Source: an uncultured delta proteobacterium (GTDB lineage: Bacteria; Desulfobacterota; RBG-13-43-22). From it: DNA of 64,000 nucleotides. The stretch covers positions 384,001-448,000 of the forward strand of contig CAWJJC010000020.1 in the NCBI GenBank assembly GCA_963843145.1, read 5' to 3'. The number at the start of each line of letters is the position of its first letter. The stretch's first letter is position 1. This document shows, piece after piece, positions 9,365 through 23,689 of the stretch. Under the pieces are notes generated by a model. The model did not search any database. It was not told the origin of the DNA and saw only the letters and a list, made by a program, of their open reading frames with translations. Position numbers and translations under genes: made by a program.

Positions 9365-10188
9365 ATGGACCTGATCACCATTGACCGCGAGAAATGCAAT
9401 CAGGACGGTATTTGTATCAGCGAGTGTCCAGCCCGCATCATTCGGATGGATGAAAAGGAGGGCTATCCCCTTCCCACTTCTGATTTTGAGGAGTATTGCA
9501 TCAGATGCGGACACTGTGTGGCCGTTTGCCCCGTGGGGGCGCTGCGCCTTGACTGGCTGGATCCGGAGAATTGCCGTGAACTGGAGAAGGACCTGGCCTT
9601 GACCCCCGAACAGGCCGAGCAGTTTCTCCAGGCCCGGCGCTCGATCCGGAGCTTTAAGGAAAAGACGGTCCCTCGGGAGACCCTGGAAAAACTATTGGAG
9701 GTCGCCTGTTCCGCTCCTTCAGCCAAGAACCAGCAGCCCTGGCACTGGATCGTTGTCCAGGAGCCCCAGGAAGTCCGGCGAATGGCCGGCCTGGTCGTGA
9801 AGGCCATGCGGGCGGTCCTGGAATCAAATCCGGAAGCCGGGAAAACGCGGGGCTACACCGGGTGGTCGCCGCCTGGGACACGGGATTGGATCGGGTTTGC
9901 CGGGAGGCGCCCCATCTCATCATCGGTCATGCCGACCGAAACTGGCTTTTCGGTCCCGAGGACACCGCTCTGGCGTTGAGCCTGCTCGACCTGTACGCCA
10001 CGAGCCTCGGGTTAGGGGTCTGCTGGGGCGGCTACTTGTACAAAACGGTAAATGCCTACCCCCCCCTGTTTGAGGCTCTGGGCCTGCCCAAGGATCATCT
10101 TGCCTTTGGGGCCGTGATGGTCGGCTATCCGAAATTCAAGTACCCGCGTATCCCGGTCCGCAATCCGCCTCGGGTGACCTGGAAATAA
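9365..10188 (+). CDS. Nitroreductase family protein with N-terminal 2[4Fe-4S] ferredoxin; frameshift near 9850-9865 (probably sequence error)
   Basis: CNQDGICISECP, CIRCGHCVAVCP, RRSIRSF, APSAKNQQPW in one frame; GLGVCWGG and VGYP in the next. Confidence 0.88.
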
Positions 10189-10262
10189 ATTTTTGCCTGA
10201 TTCCCATTCCTGGAGTTGTTAGAATTCTTGGAAGTAAAGAAATAAAGCCTGGGAGAAGAAGC

Positions 10263-10544
10263 CTGCAACTTACCCGAATCAGCCCCAAACATCAAATCAC
10301 CATTCCCAAAGAGGTTTTCGAAAAGCTTCAATTGGAGGTGGGAGATTTTTTGGAGGTGGAAGCAACGGAGCCCGGGGTGCTTCTCGTCCCTAAAAAACTT
10401 ATTTCCAAGGATCAGGCCTGGTTCTGGTCCAAGGATTGGCAACAGAAAGAAATGGAGGCGGATCAGGCGATCGAGCGAGGAGATTTGTCAAAACCATTTC
10501 AAAAGGCAGAGGAATTACTAACGCATTTAAAAAAACGCCTATGA
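10263..10544 (+). CDS. AbrB/MazE/SpoVT-family antitoxin (start uncertain, in-frame CTG at 10263)
   Basis: In-frame extension of the 10332 ORF reads TRISPKHQITIPKEVFEKLQLEVGD, a typical AbrB N-terminus; DQAWFWSKDWQQKEMEAD tail. Confidence 0.75.
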   Translation: MQLTRISPKHQITIPKEVFEKLQLEVGDFLEVEATEPGVLLVPKKLISKDQAWFWSKDWQQKEMEADQAIERGDLSKPFQKAEELLTHLKKRL

Positions 10545-10774
10545 ACATCAAAACCACCAGGCCTATTGACAAAGATTACCAAGATCTGCCCAATTCCGTC
10601 AAAGAACAAGCCGACAAACAGCTCGCTCTTTTTTTAAACAACTCACATCATCCATCTTTAAAAATCAAAAAGGTAAAGGGGCATCCCAGAATTTGGGAAG
10701 GAGGGATTACCAAAAACTACCGTTTCACCCTAAATATCTCGAGTAGATCCGATGGTCGCCCTTTCCTTCTCTGA
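10541..10774 (+). pseudogene. RelE/ParE-like toxin, C-terminally truncated near 10740
   Basis: ATGA overlap with the antitoxin; HPSLKIKKVKG..IWEG.ITKNYRFTL; final strand replaced by antisense hicA sequence. Confidence 0.65.
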
Positions 10775-10846
10775 GAAAAGAACATCCCCCCAATTCCAAA
10801 AGTCTGATCAACTCTTTGGTTTTAATGAGGGAATATTTTTAGGCAT
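10725..10846 (-). pseudogene. hicA: HicA-like toxin, N-terminal fragment with frameshift
   Basis: MPKNIPSLKP(fs)KELIRLLELGGCSFLREGKGDHRIYSR; start overlaps the hicB stop. Confidence 0.6.
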
Positions 10847-11105
10847 AAACCGCTCTTAGTTCAAAGGATTCGGACCTGGGCTCCCTTGCTTCCACTGTTA
10901 AAAATTCGTGAAGTTCTTTAATGGAAAGAGGGGCGTTATAGACATCTTCGTCTGTCCGAGCGACTTCTTCAAAGGATTCGATCGCCTCTTTTAGTTTGGA
11001 GACGGCCTTTTTCTTGCTTTTGCCTTGCCCTACCAACCCGTTTTCAAGGCATAAGGCTACCCAATAGTCCCCACTTTTTCTTAAAACAGTTGTATAAAAT
11101 TCCAT
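10839..11105 (-). CDS. hicB: HicB-family antitoxin
   Basis: YWVALCLENGLVGQGKSKKKAVSKLKEAI HicB-like pattern; followed by a hicA fragment. Confidence 0.75.
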   Translation of the reverse strand: MEFYTTVLRKSGDYWVALCLENGLVGQGKSKKKAVSKLKEAIESFEEVARTDEDVYNAPLSIKELHEFLTVEAREPRSESFELRAVYA

Positions 11106-11134
11106 AATTTTCCCCTTTTCCCTTACCTTTTTCC

Positions 11135-11645
11135 TTACCTTGGTACTGCCAAAAGCATGGCATCTAAGAGTCTTTTTTCATCACTCCCCTCAGGATACAG
11201 GGCCGAAAGGGAGTTGGCAAGGCGTAAAAAATCAGGCCCCCGGTCCTGTTTGGCCTTCAAAAGTGCGCAGGGCATTGGTTTGCGCGCTGGATTGTAACCA
11301 CATGGCGGCATGGACCCGGTCAAGGGTGGTGGCGCCTTTATCTTTAATCACCCCTTCAGAAACATCCAAATTGGTTTGCTTCGCTCCCCTTCTGCCTCGT
11401 CCTTTTATTTGGGGTGGGAGGGCTTCTTCCTTCTGCTGAAAAAGAGAAAGTTGGATGTTTCCTTGTGGAGATTGTTCAAACCGTTCGGCAAAGGCATGGG
11501 CGGTTTCTTCCCCAAAAAGCTGTTTGGCCCTTTCCATGACGGATAGAAGCCGATCGACCCCTTTCTCAGTTTCGATAATCCGTCCTTTCCATTCGGGCAA
11601 TCGAATGCCAAGGGGCTGGGCAAACCGGCGTACCACATCAAAATT
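11135..11645 (-). pseudogene. C-terminal remnant of a DUF1156-type adenine DNA methyltransferase
   Basis: Recognised from memory: FDVVRRFAQPLGI..GRIIETEKG..TTLDRVHAAM..ALLKA.QDRGPDFLRLANSLSALYP..EKRLLDAMLLAVPR; no N-terminus. Confidence 0.55.
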
Positions 11646-11770
11646 GACCGCCTTAAGAGGTTCAAGCCTATACTGCATTCGCTCATGGTCGGTTGGATCC
11701 GACCGGCCGACGGGAATGAGGACCATGGGAATCTGAGAAACATGGGGGACAAACCCCCAAATCATTCGTC
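11646..11770 (-). pseudogene. Fragment paralogous to the gene at 53803-54507
   Basis: WGFVPHVSQIPMVLIPVGRSDPTDHERMQYRLEPLKAV nearly identical to the translation of ~54308-54430. Confidence 0.85.
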
Positions 11771-11784
11771 ATCCTTCTATCCCC

Positions 11785-12342
11785 GGCGTTACGATCCACT
11801 CGCAACAGAATTCGGTAATGGGTCCATGAGAGATTCGGATGCAAATTTCCCGGCTGCCAGGGTTTTCCAAACAGTATTGGAAGAGTTGAAGCTGGTATTG
11901 GGGAATCTCCCTGTGGATCGTTCAAAACCTTTTTCCCGGGAGCCTTTGCTTCGAATTTCGAACTCGTTGCGTTCGAATTGAAATAGTCAGAAAAGTTCGA
12001 AGAAATCGAACGCAGTGCGTTCGATTTTTGTCCACCCAGTAAAGCATCTTACTCCAGGTAAAACTTGCGGCAATATTCGAGGTTTCTTACTGACCAACCT
12101 TTTCCAAATTCTTTTCCTAACCGTTCAGCCAAATCTATTAGAAGATTTTCCCCGTAACCCGCTCTTCGTTTGCCCTGCTGCTCTTCCTCAACGATCTCCC
12201 GGCCGATTAGCCAGTTGGACACCACCTGGGTGGTGTTGACCGTGCGGGACACATTCGTCCGGGCCGACTCCAGAATCTGTCGGATGCGTTCATATAGCGG
12301 TGCCTTTTTGTTTTCAGGCAGCTTTGTCGGCGATTCTTTCAC
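11785..12342 (-). pseudogene. DUF1016 (YhcG) family, N-terminal half, disrupted
   Basis: GTG 12342; LESARTNVSRTVNTTQVVSNWLIGREIVEEEQQGKRRAGYG, GKGWSVRNL, later NLSWTHYRILLRV; nuclease half absent. Confidence 0.85.
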
Positions 12343-12727
12343 GGCTCTATCTCCTCGCCCAAAAAGGGGCAACTGCCCCGGTTTGGGCGGGCCTTGGGCA
12401 GATTTTCCACCCGGAGGCTGTAATCGTCATGTCCCCATTCGCAGCGTTTTAAGACGGCATTGGGAATCATTTTGATCGTCAGATTGGGGAAACGGTCGGA
12501 CTTCCCCCGAAAGGCCGAACAAAAAACCAGCAGGGATCGGCTTTGGCCCACTTCATCGTTTAAGCCCTGAAGCTGGTCATGGCTCAGGTTCTGGGTGGTT
12601 ACGTAAATATAATCTCCCTTTCCGTGGAATGGCCGTGCTGCCAATAGATAGCTTCGCTCCGGGCATAGACAAACCCCTCCAGTTTACAGAGGGCCTCGGC
12701 CAACATGGCGGCATTGTATTGCTTAGT
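12339..12727 (-). pseudogene. Type III R-M Mod (DNA methyltransferase) C-terminal remnant
   Basis: KQYNAAMLAEALCKLEGF..YWQHGHSTER..IYVTTQNLS..FCSAFRG..CEWGHDDYSLRVENLP (family recognised from memory; matching res fragment at 51905-52081). Confidence 0.7.
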
Positions 12728-14072
12728 TGTTAAGTGCCATGACATCGTAGACACAATAGTGTGCCAGCACATCGTAGACAAAGTTCTCTGACAATCGAAT
12801 AGCCACTCGGTCATAATCATGAACACCGAAACCAAAATGGAGGTGTTCATGAAGGATGAAGTGGAGTTAACAACGGACCTGGGCGGTACGACGTTTTCTC
12901 TATGGTGAGAAGCCCGAATCAATCTGTGTTTCGCTTCGGTAGATCGAAAGCATGGCTGTATAAGTGGGTCAAGCGGTATCTTGAAGACGATCCTTTCTGG
13001 GTCGAAAACCGGTCTCGACGTCCCCTCAACAATCCGACACACACCGCCAGAAATTGAGGAGATCGTCAAGCTGGTGCGTTTCAATCTTTACAACCAAGAT
13101 TTATTTTGCGGTGCGCAGGCCATCCTGTGGGAAATGGAAGATCTTGGTGTTAAGCCGCTTCCCTCGCTCCGCACCATAAACCGCATTCTCAATGCAGGGG
13201 CTGACTCATCGACGTACAGGGCAATATGAAGCCAAAGGAACACCATATCCCAAGCTGCCGTCGCTGTTGCCGAACCAGACCCATCAGGCTGATCTGGTCG
13301 GCCCGTGTTATCTGAAAGGGCCCGTTCGCTTCTACAGCCTCAATATCGTCGATACGGCCACGGTCCGTTGCGGACTACACCCGTCGCTCTCCAAGGCCGG
13401 CCAGCAGATCATAGACGGTATCTGGGCGATCTGGAAGCGTCTGGGAATACCGGACAACCTCCAGATCGACAACGCAATGTCCTTCTTTGGCAGTCCGACC
13501 CATCCCCGTGGCATGGGGCCGCTTATCCGGCTGTGCCTGCACAACGGAGTCGAGCCATGGTTTATCCCCATGGCCGAACCATGGCGAAACGGGATCATCG
13601 AAAAGTTCAACGACCGTTACCAACAAAGTTTCCTCCAAGGTCACCATGGCAAATCCGGAGATGCTCTCCGGATCGCTGGCCTTTGAGCAGCGGCACAACA
13701 GCAGCTACCGATATAGCAAACTCGGCGGGAAAACGCCCTTGAAAGCGTTGGAGGCGGCTAATCGCGTTTGAGGTTTCCAAACAGGAACAACCTCCTCGGC
13801 ACCGGCTTAAAAAGCCAGAAAACGGACGATACCATGTGGTCCGCCTGATCCGCAGAGATCTGAAGTTAAACATCTTTGGTGAACTCTTCCCGTTCCCCCC
13901 GAGCTGGAGCATGAATACGTGGTGGCTACGATCGATGTCAAAGAACAGAAATTGAAAGCTCTACCTGGACAAAACAGAATCGAGGTAATGTTCGATTACT
14001 AATTACGCTAATAACTGAGTGTCCACGATGTCGTGGCACGAAAATCCGTCCACGATGTCGTGGCACTCAACA
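12728..14072 (+). mobile_element. IS481-like insertion sequence (1345 bp) with frameshifted DDE transposase (~12849-14010)
   Basis: TGT...ACA ends; IRs TGTTAAGTGCCATGACATCGTAGAC / GTCCACGATGTCGTGGCACTCAACA; 20-bp unit repeated at 27-bp spacing at each end; flanks CTTAGT / CGTAGT; HQADLVGP, LQIDN, PWRNGIIEKFN. Confidence 0.88.
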
Positions 14073-15720
14073 CGTAGTAATTTATGCACCGCCGGAACAA
14101 CGTCACCCTTTCACGTTTAGTATAATCAAATGGCAAATTGATCGAATGAAACGCCCGGCCTAATTTGGGGACATATATTGCAAAAACTTCTTTAAAGACA
14201 CGTTCTACTCTTACCCGAACTTGCTTTTCTTTCTGCATGGGGACCTCTAACAAAATTGCATCATGCATAGGTATCAAGAAGCCGACATCATTCATCGATT
14301 CGCTCAGAGTGAGAAGTGATATCTTGAAAATATAAGACGCTGTTCCCTGTATTATCTGATTTGGCACCCATCGCTTTTCTTTTTCTGTTATTTCTCCCTT
14401 TTCTCTTAAGTACCTTCTATTCCCCGAGATTGTAGCGGTATAGCCCTTCTCTTTAGCCTCATTGCAAACCTGGTCTTTCCAAGCAGCAAGCGATTTAAAT
14501 TCGCTAAAGAATTTAAGACCTTGGGCCTTGATTTCGTCCTGGCCGGTGAGATTGACAATAAGTTTCCCAAGTCTTTCCTTTGAAATACCATATAAGAAGG
14601 CCAAAAAAATAGTTTTCGCTATTTTGCGTTTATTCTTCGTTCCAAACAGAAGGATACTCAATTCACTATACACATCACCCTTATTGTACAAATTTATTAG
14701 TTTCGGGTCCTTGGAAAATGATGCAATTATCCCAGGCTCAAACTGGTCAAAATCGGCATATATATAAATCTTACCTTCTCTAGGAGTGAATATGGCGCGA
14801 CAGGTTTTTTTTAGATACTGAATGCCCGGCTTCGTGACCAAGATTCTGCCTGTCACCGTTCCTAAAACATCAAACTCGGGATAAATGTACTTATAGGCGC
14901 TAACGGAGTATTTTAATAGTGTCGAGTAATCCATGGACGCATTTTTTGCCACAAGTAAACATTTCAAAAAATCATCGTATTCAGAGTAGATTTCAGTGAA
15001 TTCCCAAAAATCATAATCCATCTCGGTACTAATATCAGTAAGAGAAGTGTAATCCCTAACGTCTTCCCATTTCATATTGGAAATTATCTTCTGACTTACA
15101 AAATTGTAGTCGAGTTCAAGTCTCTTGATTGATGAAAAACGTGTCGTTTTCAGATCCAAAAGTTTGTCAATGAGTCTATCCTGGGAAAGAACCAGTCCGT
15201 CAAGTTGCGTACGCAAGAATAGATTGTAAATCGGGACCTCCACCTGAGTAAATCTTCCTTTTTCATCTTTTAAATTCAAGTCTTTTTCAATTGCTGCCCA
15301 GGCACTATTAAACCCATTAAGCAGATCAGCAATATTTTTAAGAAAATTCTCATCCGTATCCAATGAAACGACCTCTAACTGGTTAATTTTGTGTAACCAC
15401 ATTAGCGTTTCCCTAGAAACAAATTCCCGAATGATCCCCTTAAGAATCCACGGTTCATTGCCCACCTTATAATCGGATTTAGGACGCCCAGTCAGAAGTT
15501 TTTTTGCCGTCACTATATCAACGACCTTAGGTAACCGGCTTGGTTTTAAGTCTCTTAATTGATCTATACATTCTTCAAAATTATATGCTACTATTTCTGA
15601 GTACCTTAGGATACTTCTGACATATCTGCTATAGAAGACTCGATTTCCTACCTTCATTAGTACATATGGTTTTTCTTCAAGCGGATGTCTCAAGCAAATC
15701 ATGAACAAGGATTCAGACAT
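14008..15720 (-). CDS. Family A DNA polymerase (no 5'-3' exonuclease); true stop probably ~14126
   Basis: TVTGRI, motif A YADFDQFE, motif B RKIAKTIFLAFLYG, NQIIQGTA, motif C MHDAILLE; the called tail reads into the IS end, while one extra T in the T-run near 14182-14186 gives ..EVFCNICPQIRPGVSFDQFAI*. Confidence 0.9.
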   Translation of the reverse strand: MSESLFMICLRHPLEEKPYVLMKVGNRVFYSRYVRSILRYSEIVAYNFEECIDQLRDLKPSRLPKVVDIVTAKKLLTGRPKSDYKVGNEPWILKGIIREFVSRETLMWLHKINQLEVVSLDTDENFLKNIADLLNGFNSAWAAIEKDLNLKDEKGRFTQVEVPIYNLFLRTQLDGLVLSQDRLIDKLLDLKTTRFSSIKRLELDYNFVSQKIISNMKWEDVRDYTSLTDISTEMDYDFWEFTEIYSEYDDFLKCLLVAKNASMDYSTLLKYSVSAYKYIYPEFDVLGTVTGRILVTKPGIQYLKKTCRAIFTPREGKIYIYADFDQFEPGIIASFSKDPKLINLYNKGDVYSELSILLFGTKNKRKIAKTIFLAFLYGISKERLGKLIVNLTGQDEIKAQGLKFFSEFKSLAAWKDQVCNEAKEKGYTATISGNRRYLREKGEITEKEKRWVPNQIIQGTASYIFKISLLTLSESMNDVGFLIPMHDAILLEVPMQKEKQVRVRVERVFKEVFAIYVPKLGRAFHSINLPFDYTKRERVTLFRRCINYYVLSATTSWTDFRATTSWTLSY

Positions 15721-17361
15721 AAAATGACACCTCTCTAATCAGATCATAATATCTGATTTCTCTCGGAGGTTCGATGTATTTTGGGGTTGCAAACTTGCTG
15801 AGAGTCCTAAACATACCCACTGACTCTGCTTTTATATGCGCTTGAACTTTCTCCTTAACCGTTTGATATTCTACTTCCTGGATAGCAATTAGAGCATGCC
15901 TCTGTAAGAAGAAATTGTCAAAATTCGGAAATTTTTCAACAATCCAATCTCTGGAAGTTTTGTCACCGCAGCAACCTAAATACAAGATTGCGCCGGCCTT
16001 ATCAGCATGACTGGAAGTCGTATTAACAACATTCTTGGCGTGCTGAATTAATTCTGAATCACAAAATCGATAATAAGCAAATACCTTCCACAACAAATAG
16101 TTTTGCCAACCATAAATTGCTTTCTTAGTGTCCAATTGAAAATTCCGCAGTAGCTTCAACTCACTGTTCTCCAAGTTGACAGCGACCAGATAAGAATAGA
16201 ATTGGTCGGAAATATGGGGCCACTCTGGTATACAATCAAGGATAGCCCCTGTAATATCTTTGAAGAAATTCGCTGGCTTTGCTATGTCTTTACATAATGC
16301 CAATCGTCCAATTCTATTGACAAAGAAGCGAAATTCTCTATCTGACACTCTCTCTTCTCTAATTGCACTAAGTAGCCCGTCACGAACTTCCTTGAAGGCC
16401 ATCGCAACCAACGGTTTCTTCTTACTATTTAGCAATGAGTCGATTCTTTCGAGGTCAAATTGATTGGAGGTGGTTGCGGGATGACCCGGTTGGCCAGGTT
16501 CAATAATTTTTGTCTTAGAACCATTAACATTTAGACCAATCTTCCTCAGTTCATTTATAAGCTGTTTCAATATATTTCTGGCATCGTATTTGTCTTCACA
16601 AATCACTCTGATATCGTCAACGTATCTATAATAATCGAATTTTCCCCTTAACATAAACAGGTCTAGGGGGCGAAGATATATGCTAGCCAAAAAGGATGAA
16701 ATATCTCTATTTTGAGGGAGTCCATTCACTCCATTGTACGACCAAACCTCTACACAGCGGCATATCGATTCTATGCAGAACCTTAATTTGGCTTTTCCTT
16801 TAGCGGACCCGTCCACCTCACTTAGGCACTGAAATAATGTCGCTTTCAAATCGGCAATTCGGATACTTTCGAAATAATTCTGTATATCGGTTTCAAGGAC
16901 CGTCTTGTTAGCTGAATCTACCCGTACAAATTCTCGGAATTTGGTCCATTGTTCTATTGGGGGTAGGAACAAACTTTTGGGCTTGCCTTTTCGGTAGGAG
17001 ATCTCATCCAAGCGATGGCTCAAGACACGCCGAGGAATTACCGCGTCAAAGTGTTCGATGAGGATCTCACCAAAGGCATGATAAGCAACTCTGTCGTAGA
17101 AACAGGTTTCGAGGGAATATCTTAGCGTGGCCCCTTTTTTGGGAACATTTGCCACTAACTTTTTGATAGGCTGATATACACCATTGTTCGTTTCTATGTT
17201 GCTATGAAAATACCAAACAATATCACTTGTGTTTAACCGATCCTCGAATAGCAAGGGGTCAAGGAACCAATCATCTTTCAAGTCCTGTCTTACGAAACGA
17301 ACTGTTCTATCCAGATCTATAACGCAGTATCCAAGATCCAAAAAGGCTTTTTTTTTCCCAT
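15713..17361 (-). CDS. Reverse transcriptase of the UG/Abi (defence-associated) type with a helical C-terminal domain
   Basis: VPKKGATLR, TDIQNYFESI, GLPQNRDISSFLASIYL, YYRYVDDIRV, GLNVNGSKTKI; ~250-aa helical tail; start is TTG 17341, or ATG 17361 if one base is missing from the homopolymer runs. Confidence 0.93.
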
Positions 17362-17579
17362 ATGTTTACCAAAGGTATTCCGTGGGACTCTTCTTTATTT
17401 CAATGGAGCTTCTCTGTTTATAGTTATCCTGGCTCTTTCATGGGATTAAAAGTTCTTTTTTTGCCAAGGTGGAATATTAATCGTCACATTCCTTCTTCTT
17501 ATACACTCCGAATAGACCAAAATCGGAATGCTTCATGGATTGACCTTTCGATTAAGATTGTTGGCCAAGGAAGACAGTA

Positions 17580-18393
17580 TTATATCTCGCTTAATCTCTT
17601 TGCCTCGGAAAAGAAGATGGCCGATCCAACCGGTTTATCCTGCCAGACCTTCTCTCGGTGAGCCGCTTTATAAACCTGGCGTTCATCGGGGAAGGTCTTG
17701 ACGATCTTCTCGATAATCAACAGTTCTTTCTGGGCAAGGGGTTCGGCCTCGGAATCATCCGCTTTTTTAATCTCTTCCACCAAGTCCCGGTAGTTGTTGA
17801 GCTGTGGCCCCAAAGGCAGAGCGGCATAACCGGCCCCGGTCATGCTGGTCCCCAGATCGCGGAAGGCCAGCATATCCGCATACCAGAGGTATTTGGCTGC
17901 ATAAAGCATTCGGTCTGTTTTTCTGAGAAGCGGCCTTCCTAATTTGTTTTCAAAAGTGGTTAAAACTAATTTGGTCCGCGGGATAGAAAAAGGTTCGGTT
18001 TCCCGAAAAATCGTCTCTCAAACGGTGTCCTATCAGGTGAAGGCGAAGGGCGTGGTCCAGGGACTTGCTCTGGATCAGCCCGGTTTCCCATCGTTTAATA
18101 CTGGCCACTCCGATCTTTAGGATGTCTGCCAAGGCCTGTTGGGTCAACCCTCTTTTTTTGCGTAACGTTTTAATCTCGTCGCCGGTAAGAAGTCCGGTCC
18201 GCTTTCGGAAGGCATCGGCCAAATCCTGTTGAATGGGTCCGGCGGTTTTAGCCGTTCCGGCCTCCATTCCGCATTCCGGGCAGACATAGGCCTCAACCTG
18301 GGAGGGAATCTCCATTCCCCGAAAGCTGACGGTCTTGGTAATTTTCAGGAGTTTCATCCGGTCATGCCCTCGGGGGCAATTTAAAGCCTTCAT
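17580..18393 (-). CDS. MqsA-like Zn-finger + XRE HTH + Panacea (DUF4065/SocA) antitoxin; frameshifted ~17915-18000
   Basis: CPRGH..CPECG, LTGDEIKTLRKKRGLTQQALADILKIGVASIKRWETG, then KYLWYADMLAFRDLGTSMTGAGYAALPLGP. Confidence 0.75.
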
Positions 18394-18402
18394 GATGATT
18401 TC

Positions 18403-19524
18403 CTAGTTCTTTACTGCTTTGAATTTGGAAAATCGAATCCGATTCTTGAGTTTATTGCCTTGTGAAAAGGAAATAATATTTTCATGTTGAAGCCGTCCTA
18501 CAATAATTCCGGGGGCAATGTCTATCTGTTCTGCAAATCGTAAAATCGTATCCGGGCTGAAGTCGTTGCCGGTTATGAAATTTTTATAGGCTTCCTTGGG
18601 AATTAACATTTCCTGGGAAAAAAGATCGGCCTCTTTTTCCTTGGAAATCCTTTCAGGTTCTCGGTGACCATCCCCTGAGGCCTCGATATAGACTTCTTTT
18701 TTCCCATGAAGCAGAATATGACCGGCTTCATGAAAAAAGGTGAACCAGAGATGATCGTCACTTTTTCCGCGCAAACTGAGCTGGATGAGGGCCTTCGAAG
18801 GTTTCAGCCAGCGAGTGGCTCCATAAAGGCGTGTTCCCGGGAGTTCCGGGATGAAGACCACGGCCACGCCGCTTCCCGCGCAAAGTTCCTTCATGGCCGG
18901 TTCAAACACCTCGGGACCCTTTTGAGTCAAGGTCCGTATTTTTTGTAAAGCCTTCAGGAAAGAACGCGGTTGAAAAGATTGGCAGTCAACCTTTTGCCCT
19001 TCAATCTCTCCCCGGCGCAACCAGGCGGCCACGGCGGCCGGATTACTTTGAAAGGCCTTTGAATTGCGGTAGGCCGCTTGAGGGTTTTCCCATATTGCCT
19101 TCCATTCGTTAACGCCGGCTACTCCAAAAAAAGTCAAAAGGTCCCGTACTCTCTTAATCGGGTTATCCTCCTTTGACAACCAGCCCATTTTTACCATGGC
19201 CGCCAGAGGAAACCCCTTTAGCCAATTAGCCTGTTTTTCCAGATAATGGTCTTCTCTAAGCCGGGCCTGCCTTTCTTGATAGTTGCGCTCCAGGTTGTTC
19301 CAGAAAGAAGCCGGGACACCCAGCACCCTTTCCAATTGGAGGGCCGTTTCCGAGGTTATAGCTGCTTTCCCCATGATGATCTCATTAACGGTCTTTTTGG
19401 GGCGGCCTGTCCTCTCCGCCAACTCCGCCTGGCTCATGCCGATCGTTTCCAGCGTTTCTTTCAGAGTTTCACCGGGAGGAACGGCATAGTCCGGTTGAAA
19501 TGATTGGTCGGCATTCCTATTCAT
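18403..19524 (-). CDS. higA: HigA-family antitoxin fused to an ImmA/IrrE-type metallopeptidase domain
   Basis: VPPGETLKETLETIGMSQAELAER..FWNNLE; FTFFHEAGHILLH (HExxH); EKEADLF. Confidence 0.9.
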   Translation of the reverse strand: MNRNADQSFQPDYAVPPGETLKETLETIGMSQAELAERTGRPKKTVNEIIMGKAAITSETALQLERVLGVPASFWNNLERNYQERQARLREDHYLEKQANWLKGFPLAAMVKMGWLSKEDNPIKRVRDLLTFFGVAGVNEWKAIWENPQAAYRNSKAFQSNPAAVAAWLRRGEIEGQKVDCQSFQPRSFLKALQKIRTLTQKGPEVFEPAMKELCAGSGVAVVFIPELPGTRLYGATRWLKPSKALIQLSLRGKSDDHLWFTFFHEAGHILLHGKKEVYIEASGDGHREPERISKEKEADLFSQEMLIPKEAYKNFITGNDFSPDTILRFAEQIDIAPGIIVGRLQHENIISFSQGNKLKNRIRFSKFKAVKN

Positions 19525-19855
19525 GCGTATCCTCAATTCCTAATATCTTGACTTTGGTGATTTTTTTCCAGTTTAGGCCACCGTCCTCTTTCCGAGGACA
19601 ATCTTCATAATCTGGAAGAATGATCAGCCGGTATGGCTGCTTTACATCGAGAGAAATCTGGCCCTTACGGTTTCCGGTTAACTCATGGGCTCGGGCTTGC
19701 GGGAGGGTGCGTAGTATTTCAAGGTTATCGGCGGCCTGAATTTCAGACAGACGCCGGGTAATTTTCCTGGCCTGTTCTTGGCCAAAGACCTTAATCAAAG
19801 CTTTTTCACTCGAAAAGGTTTTTTGATCTTGTTTCCTTCTAAAAGAAATTAACAT
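19517..19855 (-). CDS. higB: HigB (RelE-like, killer protein) toxin
   Basis: RAHELTGNRKGQISLDVKQPYRLII..IEDTHE; overlaps the higA start. Confidence 0.88.
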   Translation of the reverse strand: MLISFRRKQDQKTFSSEKALIKVFGQEQARKITRRLSEIQAADNLEILRTLPQARAHELTGNRKGQISLDVKQPYRLIILPDYEDCPRKEDGGLNWKKITKVKILGIEDTHE

Positions 19856-19882
19856 CGCGCCCGTCTAATGTCAATAAAAAAA

Positions 19883-19897
19883 TAACCCTTAGGGTTA
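19883..19897. promoter_or_regulatory. Palindromic operator upstream of higBA
   Basis: TAACCC-TTA-GGGTTA, 28 bp before the higB ATG and next to a minus-strand TTGACA. Confidence 0.6.
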
Positions 19898-20113
19898 ATA
19901 ATAAATTTTAAATCGGGCTCCGTTAAGATTGAATCGCTATCGCTGCCAAAGCCCCAGCATTCGAATCGTCCGAGGCATCGCGCCCTGAGTTGGATGATAC
20001 TCAAGTATCCTTTTCGCCCAATAAATGATACTTATCAATCAAAAAGATCATTAAACCTTCTGGCTTGACGGACCCGAGTTTCGCGTCCACCTCACCAGTC
20101 CGTCGTTGAAAAT

Positions 20114-20200
20114 AAAAAAGCCCTGCTCCTTGATTACGAAGCAGAACCTTTGAGTTTCATTCATCCTCCCCAAGTTAAGGTTAGGCGGAAAAATAATCGG
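20114..20200 (-). repeat. 87-bp leader/terminator element, copy 1 (copy 2 at 63567-63653)
   Basis: Ungapped match with 14 mismatches in 87 by manual alignment; GGAGG, 8-codon ORF, hairpin plus U-run. Confidence 0.85.
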
Positions 20201-20239
20201 CCTGGATTTCGCCGGCACTGGTGAAAAAAGCTGCCCTTT

Positions 20240-21118
20240 TCAACCCCATTTCTCGCGGAAACGGCTTAAGCGGTAGGAGAGCAGGACCCTGTAAACTTGC
20301 TTGGGCAAAACCCCGGTTCGTTCAGCAATCAGCGGGTGAAGAGCAGAAGATGGGGGACCGGAGGCCGACAGGTATTTCCGGTACTCATTCAGGACGGCGG
20401 TTTCCTGTTCCGAAGTTACATGGGAGACGTTTCGCACTTCTTCTCCCCGTCATGAAGAAGGTCCAGATAGCGGGAGACCACCCAGGGGTTCAAGCCGGTC
20501 TCTTGAGACGATCTGGTCTTGGATTTCCGAGAAGGAATTTTTTCCTTCCAGACGAGAAAAATAGGCCTTTTCGATGGTGAAACGCTCTTCCCGGGTCAAA
20601 TCCTCTACTTGGGCCTGCTGTTGATTCCACTGCCTCAGGGCCAGGACAACGCTCCGGGATGGAATTCCCATATCGGCGGCGATGGTCTTTCGCCTTCCGT
20701 GCGCTGGCCTCTCCAGACCCTGAACATAGATTTGATATCGGTCCACGATTTCCTGAATCTGCGCCGGGGTCAGCTCGATTTCTTCCCTCTTCCGATCGGG
20801 GGTTGGAGGTTCTCCCTGTTTGCCGGTTTTTTCTTTGGGCGCCGGCTGTACCTTCTCCTCGCTTCCCTGGCTTTCGATCTCCCTTGAAACCTCGGACCTT
20901 GGAATATCAATCGGCCCGGAGGCTGGACTTTTTACGATGGATTGTTTTGTTTTCCCCGCTGCTTTTGGCGAGGGCTCTTTTTGGGGGACCGTTTCCGATT
21001 GGGGCCTTGGTTGGCCCTTGCCGGCACATCGTTGGCATATTTTTGCCTTCTTATCCGGGGTTAAAAAACTCCGCCCACACTCCTCGCAATCCTTTCTGAA
21101 GGCCATTCCTCCGGACAT
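20240..21118 (-). CDS. Hypothetical protein with N-terminal Zn-ribbon and HTH-like segments; frameshifted ~20440-20510
   Basis: CEECG..CQRC; AGGAGG RBS; the 20240-20437 ORF continues it. Confidence 0.6.
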
Positions 21119-21155
21119 AAATTCTCCCCTCCTGCTTTTCTTTTCTTGCTGGATT

Positions 21156-21533
21156 TTAGTGCTTCAACCGGCAGGCTAGCGAACACTTTTTCGGCCAGAG
21201 GGCCCAATCTTCGGGAGGTTTACAGATCTTCTCTTCTATCCGGCGTTCCAGGTCCTCCCGGACCTCCGGATCCAACCGGAGATCGTCCAGATGGCCGCTG
21301 ACCTCTTTCCAGAAAAGACCGAATTGAAAAGACTGGAGGTCGAATTCCCGGACGGAGAGGAAGCGTTCATCCAGGGTCCCGAGCAGGAAACAATCTTCTT
21401 CCGCGGCGGTCTTGGCCCCCGGACGGCAACCGATCAGGACAGCCTCCAGCCGAACCTGCATCCTTCCGGCGCCTTCGGACATCGATCTGTTCCGCCATTC
21501 GAACCGCATAGCCGCCTCACTAAAAAACCGCAA
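21156..21533 (-). CDS. Hypothetical protein (start possibly at the downstream ATG, MRFEW)
   Basis: Co-oriented ORF filling the gap after the hdr cluster; no motif recognised. Confidence 0.45.
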   Translation of the reverse strand: MRFFSEAAMRFEWRNRSMSEGAGRMQVRLEAVLIGCRPGAKTAAEEDCFLLGTLDERFLSVREFDLQSFQFGLFWKEVSGHLDDLRLDPEVREDLERRIEEKICKPPEDWALWPKKCSLACRLKH

Positions 21534-21550
21534 ACTCAGGGCGCGGTTTT

Positions 21551-23689
21551 TTAGATTACAAAGGTCTTCGAATCCACCGGGAAGGTGAACCGATCGTAAA
21601 TCCGCTGGATCCCCTTGGCTCGGCGGACCGGGCTGATCCCCAACTGGCGGATCCTCTCCTCCACCGTCTGGCAGGTTTTGAGCAGTTGGGCCAGCATGCC
21701 CGGGCCGACGGTTTCGAACTGGATCCGTTCCGGCTCCAGACCCAGCTCGGACAGGACCTCCCGAAGATACTCCACCCGTTCCAGGGCCTTTTTGTTTCCT
21801 TCAAAGGATTTGCAGCCCTCGATCGGACAGGCCAGGACCACTACTCCGTCGGCCCCTTCCCGAAAAGCGTGCAGCACGTGATCCGGATCGATCTTCCCGG
21901 CGCAGGGGACCTTGATGAACTCAAACCCGATGGGCAGCGGTTCCCGGAACAACAGGGCCTGCTGCAGGGTCTTATCCGCTGAATTCTGGCAACAGAAGGC
22001 CACCACCTGCGGCACGATCGTGTCGAATTTCCGGTCCGTAAAATTCCCGGAGATCTCCCGGAGTACGACGGAATCATGGAAATCCTTGATCTGGATGGCA
22101 TCCATGGGACATTCGGCCGCGCAGACCCCGCAGACCTGGCAGGCCAAGGGATGGGCCTGAGGCCGGCGAAGGACGAAATGCATGGCCTGATGGGGACAGG
22201 ATCGGACGCACGTCAGACAAATGGTGCACTTCTTGCGGTCGACTCGAACCCGCGACTCCACCTCTTGAATCCCCCGGCCGATCAATGCCGCGGCGGACAG
22301 GACCGCTTCCTCCACTTCGGCCCGTATTTCCTCCGGGTCGGCGAAAGGCCGACGGCTGCCGCCCACTACATAAATTCCCGGGCGGGGGGCCCGGACCGGC
22401 AGGGCGTAAACCTGATCCGGAGCCATAAATCCCTTTTGATCCAGCGGCGTCTCCAGGATAGGGGAGAGTTCCTTCAGCCAGGGGTGGGGAAGCAGGTCTT
22501 CCTCCACCACGATGACCTGCGGTTTTAAGATCAGCGTGCGGTCGATGATCTCATCGAAAAACTCCACCTGGAGATCGGCCTCCGTCGCTTTCACGACCGG
22601 AAGATGACCGGTGAAGCGGAAGAAAATGACCCCTTCCTCACGGGCCCGGGTTGACTCCCGCTCCAAACCCTCAGCGGCCACCTTCAGGTTTCCCGACAGG
22701 AAATAGACCTGGGTATTTTCCAGCCCCTGGACTTTTCGGGCGTTACTCAGGGCCCTGGCCAGCACCGGAGGACCGGACTCGGACGCCAGACCCGACAGGA
22801 AAACGATCTCGGTCTGCTCTCCCTGGGGAATCAATTTTTCCCGGTACTCCGGTGAACGTAACAGGGTTTCCAGTTGGTCCAAGGAAAGGACCCGGCGGGA
22901 GGGTTTCAGGCCGAAGGCTTCAAAATTGGGCTTCACTTCCGGCGCCAGGGCGACCAGGACAGCCCCCACCGCTTCTTCCTGAATCCGGTCTTCCCCATCC
23001 AGGTAGCGAACCGTAAAACGCCCGACCTGACCTTCCAGGCTGAGGAGTTTGACCTCGCTCACCAGGCGAAACCCCGGCAGGGCGGTCAATTCGGAGAGGG
23101 ATCCGTCCTCCCCCTCCACCCCGGAGACCTGATCATAATACCCGTCCCGGTCGGATTCCTTGCCGTCCACCAGGACCAGCGCCTCATATCCGAGCCGGAC
23201 GGTTTCCCTGGCGGCCAGCCGTCCCATCGGCCCGCTTCCTAAAATCAACAGGCGGGGAATGGTTTCCACCTGTTCCCGGATCGGGGTCTCGGCGGATGGC
23301 AACCGCAGGAGGGCCTGTTTCAGTAAAAGGATGGATCGTTCCCGGACCAGTTCCGGTTCCGCTGCGGTCCCCCTGAAAACCGGTCGCACATTCACCATGA
23401 ACACTTGATCGGGATGAAGGCCCAGGCGGGTCGCCTCCTTTTGGAAAAAGCCGGATCGGTTCGACCCCCGGTCGGAGACAAAGACCAGCCGGGACAGATC
23501 ATGGGTTCGGATCTCCTGCTCCAGCCGTCCGGCGCTGGCCTCCCAGTGGTCTTCGAACAGGTCCTCCACGACCTTCACCCCGGGGAAGGAACCGGCCAGC
23601 ATTTTTAAATCCTCGCTGCCCGGTGTATCCGGCATTCTCTTTTCTTTATGGTAAAGAAAGACGCCGATCTTCGGTTCTACATCTAGCAT
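21551..23689 (-). CDS. HdrA-like / ferredoxin / MvhD fusion (QmoB-like architecture)
   Basis: ATG 23689; degenerate HdrA body, CTICLTCVRSCP, CQVCGVCAAECP, C-terminal VVAFCC..VPCAGKID..LACPIEGCKSFEGN. Confidence 0.85.
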   Translation of the reverse strand: MLDVEPKIGVFLYHKEKRMPDTPGSEDLKMLAGSFPGVKVVEDLFEDHWEASAGRLEQEIRTHDLSRLVFVSDRGSNRSGFFQKEATRLGLHPDQVFMVNVRPVFRGTAAEPELVRERSILLLKQALLRLPSAETPIREQVETIPRLLILGSGPMGRLAARETVRLGYEALVLVDGKESDRDGYYDQVSGVEGEDGSLSELTALPGFRLVSEVKLLSLEGQVGRFTVRYLDGEDRIQEEAVGAVLVALAPEVKPNFEAFGLKPSRRVLSLDQLETLLRSPEYREKLIPQGEQTEIVFLSGLASESGPPVLARALSNARKVQGLENTQVYFLSGNLKVAAEGLERESTRAREEGVIFFRFTGHLPVVKATEADLQVEFFDEIIDRTLILKPQVIVVEEDLLPHPWLKELSPILETPLDQKGFMAPDQVYALPVRAPRPGIYVVGGSRRPFADPEEIRAEVEEAVLSAAALIGRGIQEVESRVRVDRKKCTICLTCVRSCPHQAMHFVLRRPQAHPLACQVCGVCAAECPMDAIQIKDFHDSVVLREISGNFTDRKFDTIVPQVVAFCCQNSADKTLQQALLFREPLPIGFEFIKVPCAGKIDPDHVLHAFREGADGVVVLACPIEGCKSFEGNKKALERVEYLREVLSELGLEPERIQFETVGPGMLAQLLKTCQTVEERIRQLGISPVRRAKGIQRIYDRFTFPVDSKTFVI

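Follow-up and report, generated by a model that had tools for sequence, protein, structure and literature searches.

We analysed a 64,000-nucleotide stretch of DNA (hereafter the window) from an uncultured delta proteobacterium of the Desulfobacterota lineage RBG-13-43-22 (assembly GCA_963843145.1, contig CAWJJC010000020.1, forward-strand positions 384,001 to 448,000), in which a gene for a reverse transcriptase (RT) overlaps one that encodes a DNA polymerase of family A (PolA). The two genes are minus-strand open reading frames (ORFs) at 15713..17341 (542 amino acids, aa) and 14008..15720 (570 aa). We found that the locus is almost certainly a small-variant UG9 module, in which a Class 1 UG/Abi RT is combined with a dedicated family A polymerase (RTasPolA). 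It is a new, divergent copy of a catalogued module and no new kind of system, and the pair was acquired horizontally into a variable island. By analogy with characterised two-polymerase systems, the RT would make protein-primed single-stranded DNA (ssDNA) which PolA would then copy; we put the probability of this mechanism as a whole at about 0.45.

Assignment of the pair to UG9

Both proteins match the profiles of the catalogued module. The RT matches the PADLOC model RT_UG9_small over residues 6-541 (profile positions 8-540/541; E = 8.6e-154, 511 bits), ahead of UG9_large (310 bits) and UG21 (173 bits), and PolA matches the PADLOC model RTasPolA over residues 14-516 (E = 6.5e-111). Pfam identifies RVT_1 as the sole domain of the RT ORF (E = 1.3e-12) and DNA_pol_A in the PolA ORF (E = 5.3e-41). 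An N-terminal protease fusion and an upstream metallo-beta-lactamase (MBL) hydrolase are both absent, as the RT has only 542 aa and the ORFs upstream of it are of the SocA/Panacea and MqsA-like types; this indicates the small and not the large variant. The nearest recorded RT is 63% identical to that of the window, and the nearest PolA homologue 55%.

A model of the RT built with AlphaFold2 (AF2) has a mean predicted local distance difference test score (pLDDT) of 94.9 and a predicted template modelling score of 0.92. It comprises an RT domain and, C-terminal to this, a domain that is wholly helical (helices 294-534), and so contains the C-terminal alpha-helical repeat domain that is a hallmark of Class 1; the last four residues have pLDDT below 50. 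The best Foldseek matches are likewise Class 1 enzymes (DRT4, AbiK, UG15, DRT6, Abi-P2 and AbiA, at about 500 columns each). For AbiK, Abi-P2, DRT4 (UG15) and DRT6 (UG12), which share the RT and alpha-repeat fold with the UG9 RT but work without a partner polymerase, E ranges from 5e-11 to 2e-8 and the query-based TM-score (TMq) from 0.45 to 0.58. A first-pass annotation, made from the sequence alone, had described an RT with an intact YVDD motif and a long helical C-terminal domain, overlapping PolA by 8 nt, and had noted that genomic surveys list one group, UG9, beside PolA. The motif (Y240-V-D-D243), the helical domain and the exact length of the overlap are as described, and the mention of UG9 agrees with the RT_UG9_small profile, the Class 1 fold and the account of Mestre et al. 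2022 (PMC9226505). The same annotation had ranked the locus as its top candidate system; as a new system it does not stand, as the pair is already in PADLOC and is described in Mestre et al. 2022.

In the part of Mestre et al. 2022 available to us, UG9 is equated with group D of Kojima and Kanehisa and is associated with a family A polymerase; 60 of its 79 members belong to the small variant, and the other 19 carry a protease and an MBL hydrolase. The same part gives UG9 as enriched in defence islands, contains no experimental validation of it, and places it outside the set of systems tested. The window locus shares with the catalogued small variant its full-length profile matches, gene order, coupling, lack of protease and MBL, and island context; it differs from it in a frameshift towards the 3' end of PolA and in an RT ATG that is out of frame.

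We also considered whether the RT might instead be of the group II intron, retron or diversity-generating retroelement (DGR) type, with PolA as an unrelated neighbour. The RT core does bear weak similarity to all three families. A group II intron RT was rejected at 61 bits against TIGR04416 (cutoff 300), with no maturase or endonuclease domain and no Rfam intron. A retron RT was rejected at 32 bits against NF038233 (cutoff 235), with no Rfam match and a fold z-score of -0.62 for the upstream region, and a DGR was rejected for lack of a pair resembling template and variable repeats, no direct repeat longer than 28 nt being present in 9500-22000. The first-pass annotation had already argued against all three types. 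Together with the near-absolute linkage to PolA described below, these tests refute the explanation, to which we attach practically no weight.

Linkage of RT and PolA across genomes

Eighty genome loci from many phyla were fetched by similarity to the RT, and the 76 that extend 600 nt or more downstream of the RT were treated as informative. The count of RT homologues with an adjacent PolA, one of the checks put forward in the first-pass annotation, gave 74 of 76 loci in which the RT is followed immediately, on the same strand, by a PolA ORF; the remaining two have a truncated RT (L068) and a distant RT with 26% identity (L080). For the reverse direction, 80 metagenome loci were fetched by similarity to PolA, and all 69 that were informative have a UG9 RT upstream of PolA (68 by script, and L138 from its coordinates, with the RT at 1298-2989). 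RT-PolA linkage is near-absolute in both directions.

The manner in which the genes are joined is also conserved. Among the 61 pairs (window included) in which the RT is unsplit, the RT C-terminus is covered by the profile and the PolA match starts within profile position 30, the overlap is exactly 8 nt in 40 and 4 nt in six, and the rest range from -14 to +16. Pairwise distances among the RTs correlate closely with those among the PolAs (r = 0.97 for 62 intact pairs, with 0 of 999 Mantel permutations as high). This indicates that the two genes are inherited as a unit; it does not indicate co-adaptation as such. We found no third gene conserved within 3 kb on either side when 1740 flanking ORFs from the 80 loci and the window were clustered, the largest cluster being the MBL gene of three large variants (L072, L074 and L076).

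As a separate observation, the RT or PolA is split or interrupted in about seven of the 80 related loci (L031, L038, L046, L052, L061, L077 and L078), with some 2.6 kb inserted into the RT in L077. This suggests that the UG9 module is often inactivated.

A predicted complex between the two proteins

Co-folding of the pair, another of the checks put forward at first pass, was carried out with RT residues 60-542 and PolA residues 1-517, each with its own alignment. The prediction scored 0.75 in three runs, against 0.00 for the best of three controls. Of 80 solved complexes 58 reach the mark for a complex, as do two of 110 mismatched pairs, counts that hold only roughly when user-made alignments are supplied. 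At least 83% of contacts are common to the runs, and partner pLDDT is 81 or more. On the PolA side the predicted interface consists of residues 184-211 and 266-273 with loops at 12-14 and 118, and on the RT side of residues 104-142 (chiefly the helix 126-142), 293-316 and 353-359. Sequence searches of the PDB with both family profiles returned no RT-associated PolA and no UG9 RT, and hence no known solved complex of this kind. On the strength of the prediction, RT and PolA probably form a physical complex.

The family A polymerase

Bst, Klenow and Taq Pol I align, by their polymerase domain, with the PolA family profile from position 130 onward (E from about 1e-47 to 1e-43). The AF2 model has pLDDT 92.1 overall and is poor past residue 517, and its whole chain can be superposed on those of Pol theta, the large fragment of Bst and the apicoplast polymerase (TMq 0.64-0.73). 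Homologues are 526-535 aa long and cover 91% of the window ORF.

Seven residues are invariant in the 94 sequences aligned (D323, E328, R365, K369, Q458, H486 and D487); the Arg, Lys and Tyr of motif B and the residues contacting template and primer are all invariant. Two positions depart from Bst Pol I across the family: motif C reads HDA in place of HDE, and the motif B Phe of Bst Pol I is replaced by Leu in 89 of 94 sequences. A small alpha/beta domain (residues 1-125) occupies the place of the 3'-5' exonuclease. Proofreading is unlikely because D68 is the only conserved acidic residue in this domain, and PolA has neither primase nor proofreading motifs. On these sequence features it appears competent for templated DNA synthesis, with a change in its active site that is particular to the family, and without primase or nuclease function.

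The large fragments of Bst, Klenow and Taq Pol I and the polymerase domain of Pol theta likewise combine a vestigial or inactive exonuclease-like N-terminal domain with a complete palm, thumb and fingers. The UG9 PolA differs from them in that its N-terminal domain is shortened to some 125 residues, D68 being the single conserved acidic one, in its HDA motif C and its Leu at the motif B Phe, in lacking a 5'-nuclease domain, and in being always encoded behind an RT.

The penultimate tyrosine of the RT

The RTs of the UG9 family have an acidic tail at their C-terminus whose penultimate residue is Tyr, which is Tyr541 of 542 in the window. This Tyr is present in 64 of 76 RT tails (five loci in which the C-terminus was not covered having been dropped). 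Of 105 homologous proteins with 520 aa or more, 99 have it, as do 42 of 61 metagenome tails. In an 8-nt overlap the PolA ATG is formed in part by the Tyr codon; in a 4-nt overlap it is not, yet the Tyr is kept in five of six such loci. Thus the constraint acts on the protein.

A precedent is found in another Class 1 RT. According to the text of PMC13174585 that we could draw on, DNA synthesis by Drt3b is primed on a residue in its C-terminal tail, Tyr666 of 667, as shown by density in cryo-electron microscopy, a Y666F mutant and loss of defence. The priming residues described for other Class 1 enzymes, in such portions of the literature as were accessible, lie elsewhere (in the fingers of AbiK, the palm of DRT4 and an alpha-repeat helix of DRT7). 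By analogy with Drt3b, the balance tips slightly towards Tyr541 being the priming residue of the UG9 RT.

A two-polymerase mechanism and its alternatives

Two systems described recently offer a model for how the UG9 pair might work. In DRT7 (UG10), as far as the available parts of two preprints go (bioRxiv 10.64898/2026.04.18.719102 and 10.64898/2026.02.16.706125), a Class 1 RT makes protein-primed poly(dT), and a fused primase-polymerase copies it to give duplex or fold-back DNA. In DRT3, on the evidence of the accessible portion of PMC13174585, two RTs make complementary strands, and a RecBCD inhibitor is the trigger. DRT7 resembles UG9 in combining a Class 1 RT that bears an alpha-repeat domain with a second, template-copying polymerase. 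The second polymerase of UG9 is, however, a separate family A enzyme and not a fused primase of the archaeo-eukaryotic type, and so cannot prime de novo; the candidate Tyr of UG9 also lies at the C-terminus, whereas the priming Tyr of DRT7 is in an alpha-repeat helix. DRT3 resembles UG9 in having two polymerases side by side and in the position of the Tyr, which is penultimate in both (666 of 667 in Drt3b and 541 of 542 in UG9), but its second polymerase is another RT with a non-coding RNA (ncRNA) template, none of which is evident at the window locus.

These likenesses do not make the window locus a member of either system. Membership of DRT3 was rejected, with scores of 63.6 for Drt3a (cutoff 200) and 30.8 for Drt3b (cutoff 350), a single RT and no ncRNA signal; the curated Drt2-5 models are all far under their cutoffs for this RT. 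DRT7 membership was also rejected, as the PADLOC UG10 model matches the RT core only (E = 8.6e-17) and the partner is of family A, which leaves a likeness in logic alone.

The mechanism we propose has four steps. The thumb helix of PolA (residues 184-211) and loops of its vestigial exonuclease-like N-terminal domain are predicted to dock on the RT at helix 126-142 and at the first helices of the alpha-repeat. The RT would prime on its own Tyr541, in the flexible acidic tail, and polymerise ssDNA without a nucleic-acid template, as suggested by Tyr666 of Drt3b and by the fold. Docked PolA would then copy the tethered strand after its 3' end snaps back, which by analogy with DRT7 and Drt3a/b would give protein-capped duplex or fold-back DNA; snap-back is the simplest route because PolA cannot prime. 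Finally, and speculatively, the build-up of this DNA during infection might stop the cell or the phage. The idea that the RT makes ssDNA which PolA copies, first raised in the first-pass annotation, is plausible in that it fits both the DRT7 and DRT3 analogues and the complex prediction. For PolA as the maker of the second strand, taken by itself, the chances fall a little short of even. A still more specific proposal would make UG9-PolA a third, independently evolved form of immunity by duplex-DNA synthesis, with a Tyr-primed RT, hand-off through the thumb interface to a remodelled (HDA/Leu) PolA and snap-back to protein-capped fold-back DNA; this is rather doubtful, and we offer it tentatively. 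The first-pass annotation had also entertained PolA as a sensor of phage replication, for which our findings provide no support, as none of them bears on it.

A different role for PolA must also be weighed. The family-wide HDA motif and motif B Leu point to a non-standard activity, and the tight complex predicted would suit regulation as well as hand-off. PolA might accordingly be an effector or regulated enzyme that is held inactive by RT-made DNA until infection, or one that uses phage or host templates to extend what the RT has made and poisons replication; other Class 1 systems are known to steer an effector by their DNA product, as in DRT4, where, to the extent that the source at hand covers it, the product controls an effector RNase. 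We consider such a role unlikely. The catalytic Asp pair of PolA, the Arg, Lys and Tyr of motif B and the template and primer contacts are invariant, which argues for ordinary templated synthesis, and the closest characterised two-polymerase systems, DRT7 and DRT3, both make duplex DNA in the portions of the reports cited above.

Several points nevertheless weigh against the proposal that the RT primes on itself and PolA copies the product. The co-folded constructs left out RT residues 1-59, which include a highly conserved acidic motif, as well as the PolA tail. Conservation at the predicted interface is no higher than the protein average on either side (0.44 vs 0.51 for the RT, and 0.37 vs 0.44 for PolA). 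The 25 contact pairs of lowest predicted error do covary (mean corrected mutual information 0.071, vs 0.004 for entropy-matched random pairs, with 0 of 5000 draws as high), but these pairs reuse few residues and come from only 62 related sequences, and sliding PolA by +10, +40 or +100 residues still gives values of 0.042, 0.037 and 0.022; covariation thus supports the interface weakly. To judge from its sequence, PolA may have an unusual or weak activity, with Ala for the Glu of HDE and Leu for the Phe of motif B, and it requires a primer. The PolA frame slip described in the next section means that the local genes may not work at all.

The tail of the RT is a further point on this side. Twelve of the 76 tails lack the penultimate Tyr, and one RT subclade ends in ..LPDFIS or similar (L021, L022, L025, L029, L030, L035, L059, L072, L074 and L076). 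This subclade consists mostly of Bacteroidota-type records, takes in large variants with an upstream MBL, and shows little or no overlap of the RT with PolA; in it, either priming differs or the tail has another role, for example in binding a partner. The complex prediction named no tail residues at the interface, which is not evidence either way for a tail that binds a partner. Lastly, full-text literature searches on UG9, on RTs with a family A polymerase and on later DRT numbers returned no UG9 mechanism or phage assay. The search on later DRT names gave DRT11 as UG5 in the text retrieved, and the retrieved parts of PMC12926913 and PMC8632793 hold nothing on an RT-associated PolA.

Frame problems in the window copy

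As it stands, the window PolA lacks an uninterrupted frame through the family C-terminus. At an ATATAT tract, one nucleotide is missing or two are extra relative to the family, and the slip swaps out the last 15 family residues of PolA; these can be read in a different frame, up to a TGA at 14128-14126, while the ORF itself runs on to 14008 and into two palindromic 19-nt repeats. A second mismatch is found upstream of the RT, where an ATG is followed by a run of nine A and is out of frame with the RT ORF. One added A would bring this ATG into frame and give an N-terminus of the same length as in the closest homologue. The N-termini of RT homologues extend two to 10 residues past the TTG, and a start at the TTG gives the shortest N-terminus in the alignment except for one truncated sequence. 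The mismatch may reflect an assembly error, a slippage mutation or genuine use of the TTG.

The first-pass annotation had placed the system at 14126-17361. Neither end is the end of an ORF in the sequence as it stands: at 14126 lies the stop that closes the family-like C-terminus of PolA in its other frame, and 17361 is the ATG that is out of frame with the RT. Its mention of a sequence-corrected pair was apt in so far as frame corrections are needed in PolA and, for an ATG start, upstream of the RT, although they were merely hinted at.

These features raise the possibility that the window copy is a decaying, non-functional remnant of a family that may work elsewhere. The readable family C-terminus beyond the PolA slip and the ATG stranded behind the A run would both fit decay, as would the inverted pairs of 19-nt repeats around an integrase fragment just downstream, the other gene fragments in the island, and the seven broken copies among the 80 related loci. 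Against this, both ORFs are otherwise open, with 542 and 517 family-matching residues and all catalytic residues kept, and the TTG start yields an RT of family length. Both indels lie in low-complexity runs that are prone to assembly error, and a look for sequencing runs covering 13900-17600 listed none, nor any of RNA; either assembly error or genuine decay may account for the indels. The features of the sequence imply that the copy may be impaired; that it is a remnant is a serious but somewhat less than even prospect. The window copy is itself a poor experimental choice owing to its frame problems.

Genomic setting

The pair lies in an AT-rich island of 11.5 kb (about 10.0-21.5 kb; 10000-21550), bordered by a nitroreductase-like gene on one side and an Hdr/FlpD gene on the other. 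GC content is 0.38-0.40 at 14-17 kb and 0.55-0.61 in the flanks, in keeping with the first-pass description of both genes as more AT-rich than those of the host. In the flanks lie genes for Fe-S, Hdr-like, FlpD and MTHFR proteins, as is typical of an anaerobe. The coordinates of the features are collected in Table 1.

Table 1. Features of the RT-PolA locus and the surrounding island, in window coordinates
Feature	Position	Strand	Remark
UG9-small RT ORF, 542 aa, TTG start as it stands	15713..17341	-	PADLOC, AF2, Foldseek
RT catalytic motif Y240-V-D-D243	16613..16624	-	Y240, D242 and D243 invariant in 107 sequences
RT residues 126-142 (helix), core of predicted PolA-binding face	16916..16966	-	Lowest-error contacts
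Tyr541 codon, penultimate RT residue, predicted protein-priming residue	15719..15721	-	Family conservation and DRT3b precedent
Overlap of RT stop and PolA start, 8 nt (translational coupling)	15713..15720	-	ORF coordinates
PolA ORF as it stands, 570 aa, ATG start	14008..15720	-	Family match only to about residue 517 (about 14170)
PolA residues 184-211 (first long thumb helix), core of predicted RT-binding face	15088..15171	-	Aligns to start of Bst thumb
PolA motif A catalytic Asp323	14752..14754	-	94/94 sequences; aligns with Bst Pol I motif A Asp
PolA motif C H486-D487-A488 (HDA; Bst Pol I HDE)	14257..14265	-	H and D 94/94; A 89/94
ATATAT tract, PolA frame slip point	14173..14178	-	1 nt missing or 2 nt extra vs family
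Family-like PolA C-terminus (CPQIRPGVSFDQFAI, then stop)	14126..14173	-	Different frame from ORF; vs consensus CPxIxxxVxFExFxx
ATG (17361-17359), then A9 run (17356-17348)	17348..17361	-	ATG out of frame with RT ORF
Upstream intergenic region	17342..17579	-	Without sign of structured ncRNA
SocA/Panacea-domain ORF, 109 aa	within 17580-18393	-	Directly upstream of RT
MqsA-like helix-turn-helix (HTH) antitoxin ORF, 147 aa	within 17580-18393	-	Upstream of SocA/Panacea ORF
HTH and peptidase M78 protein	18403-19536	-	PADLOC PD-Lambda-2_B E 3e-35; RmrA and CapP models also match
HigB-like toxin ORF	19517-19855	-	Overlaps HTH-peptidase M78 ORF
Type III DNA methyltransferase fragment ORF	12599-13084	-	Last 45 residues match C-terminal part, PADLOC MTase_III E 7.7e-11
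rve integrase fragment	13192-13686		Bracketed by inverted 19-nt repeat pairs

The site of the island is a variable hotspot. In two congeners (G002 and G003, loci L090 and L091) the flanking genes are 88-97% identical while the content they enclose is different, as it consists in G002 of 4.1 kb with an HsdM fragment and a DUF1016/YhcG PDDEXK nuclease, and in G003 of about 8.1 kb with RtcA, RadC and a full HsdM. The island setting proposed at first pass is consistent with this variability, and a variable hotspot fits both horizontal acquisition and the low GC of the pair. UG9 was found in none of the 40 relatives searched (three from the source organism's genus, 17 from its family and 20 from its phylum, with completeness of 66-100%). 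We found no tRNA gene in the window and no convincing direct repeat (att) flanking the island at its edges.

Absence from all 40 relatives and a GC content far under that of the host are signs of horizontal movement, and they would also be expected if the pair were the replication module of a selfish mobile element, similar to a retro-plasmid or transposon, and no immune system; in the literature searched, so far as its text was available, defence by UG9 is nowhere demonstrated. However, across the 80 loci the pair has no conserved neighbour within 3 kb, be it an integrase, a transposase or another gene, and no flanking cluster exceeds three loci; neither terminal repeats nor an ncRNA were found at the window locus. 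The fold of the RT is that of Class 1 defence enzymes, and UG9 is enriched in defence islands in the part of Mestre et al. 2022 (PMC9226505) at our disposal. A selfish element is therefore a very improbable explanation, and we regard an anti-phage role for the UG9 pair as probable.

As the first-pass annotation had observed, toxin-antitoxin (TA) modules and restriction-modification debris lie close by. The HigB-like and HTH-peptidase M78 ORFs may form a separate TA or regulator module. For the MqsA-like and SocA/Panacea ORFs, no cognate toxin was identified in the annotation of the island ORFs. The methyltransferase fragment is restriction-modification debris.

Palindrome-containing 19-nt repeats occur in pairs with a spacing of 27 nt at 12734-12787 (plus strand) and, in inverted orientation, at 14021-14066 (minus strand), giving four matches where 0.01 are expected. 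The pairs enclose about 1.3 kb with the rve fragment, and look like the decayed ends of an insertion sequence or transposon with multiple transposase-binding sites, some 60 nt past the true PolA stop. Elsewhere in the island, a 33-nt inverted repeat (10344-10376 and 10875-10907) has arms that are 79% complementary and 498 nt apart, and its right arm falls within a DUF7387-like ORF (10839-11105).

A scan of 9500-22000 against Rfam gave no match at E <= 1, whether to an intron, msr/msd or any other family. The region directly upstream of the RT showed no sign of a structured ncRNA by its fold z-score, and sites resembling promoters and terminators occur near the pair as frequently as in shuffled sequences.

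Implications

The pairing of UG9 with PolA, traced by Mestre et al. 2022 to group D of Kojima and Kanehisa, is a multi-gene UG/Abi group still without a published mechanism. What this analysis adds is the two-way linkage, a prediction of the complex that names its interface, and the correspondence between the penultimate Tyr and the primer of Drt3b, which make a mechanism testable; some of these points may already be present in supplements or figures of Mestre et al. 2022 or the DRT3 preprint. The 2026 work on DRT7 and DRT3 showed that a protein-primed RT and a second polymerase building duplex DNA is a real immune strategy. If the mechanism proposed here is true, this strategy would have evolved at least three times, and UG9 would be a compact, separable two-protein pair for writing DNA.

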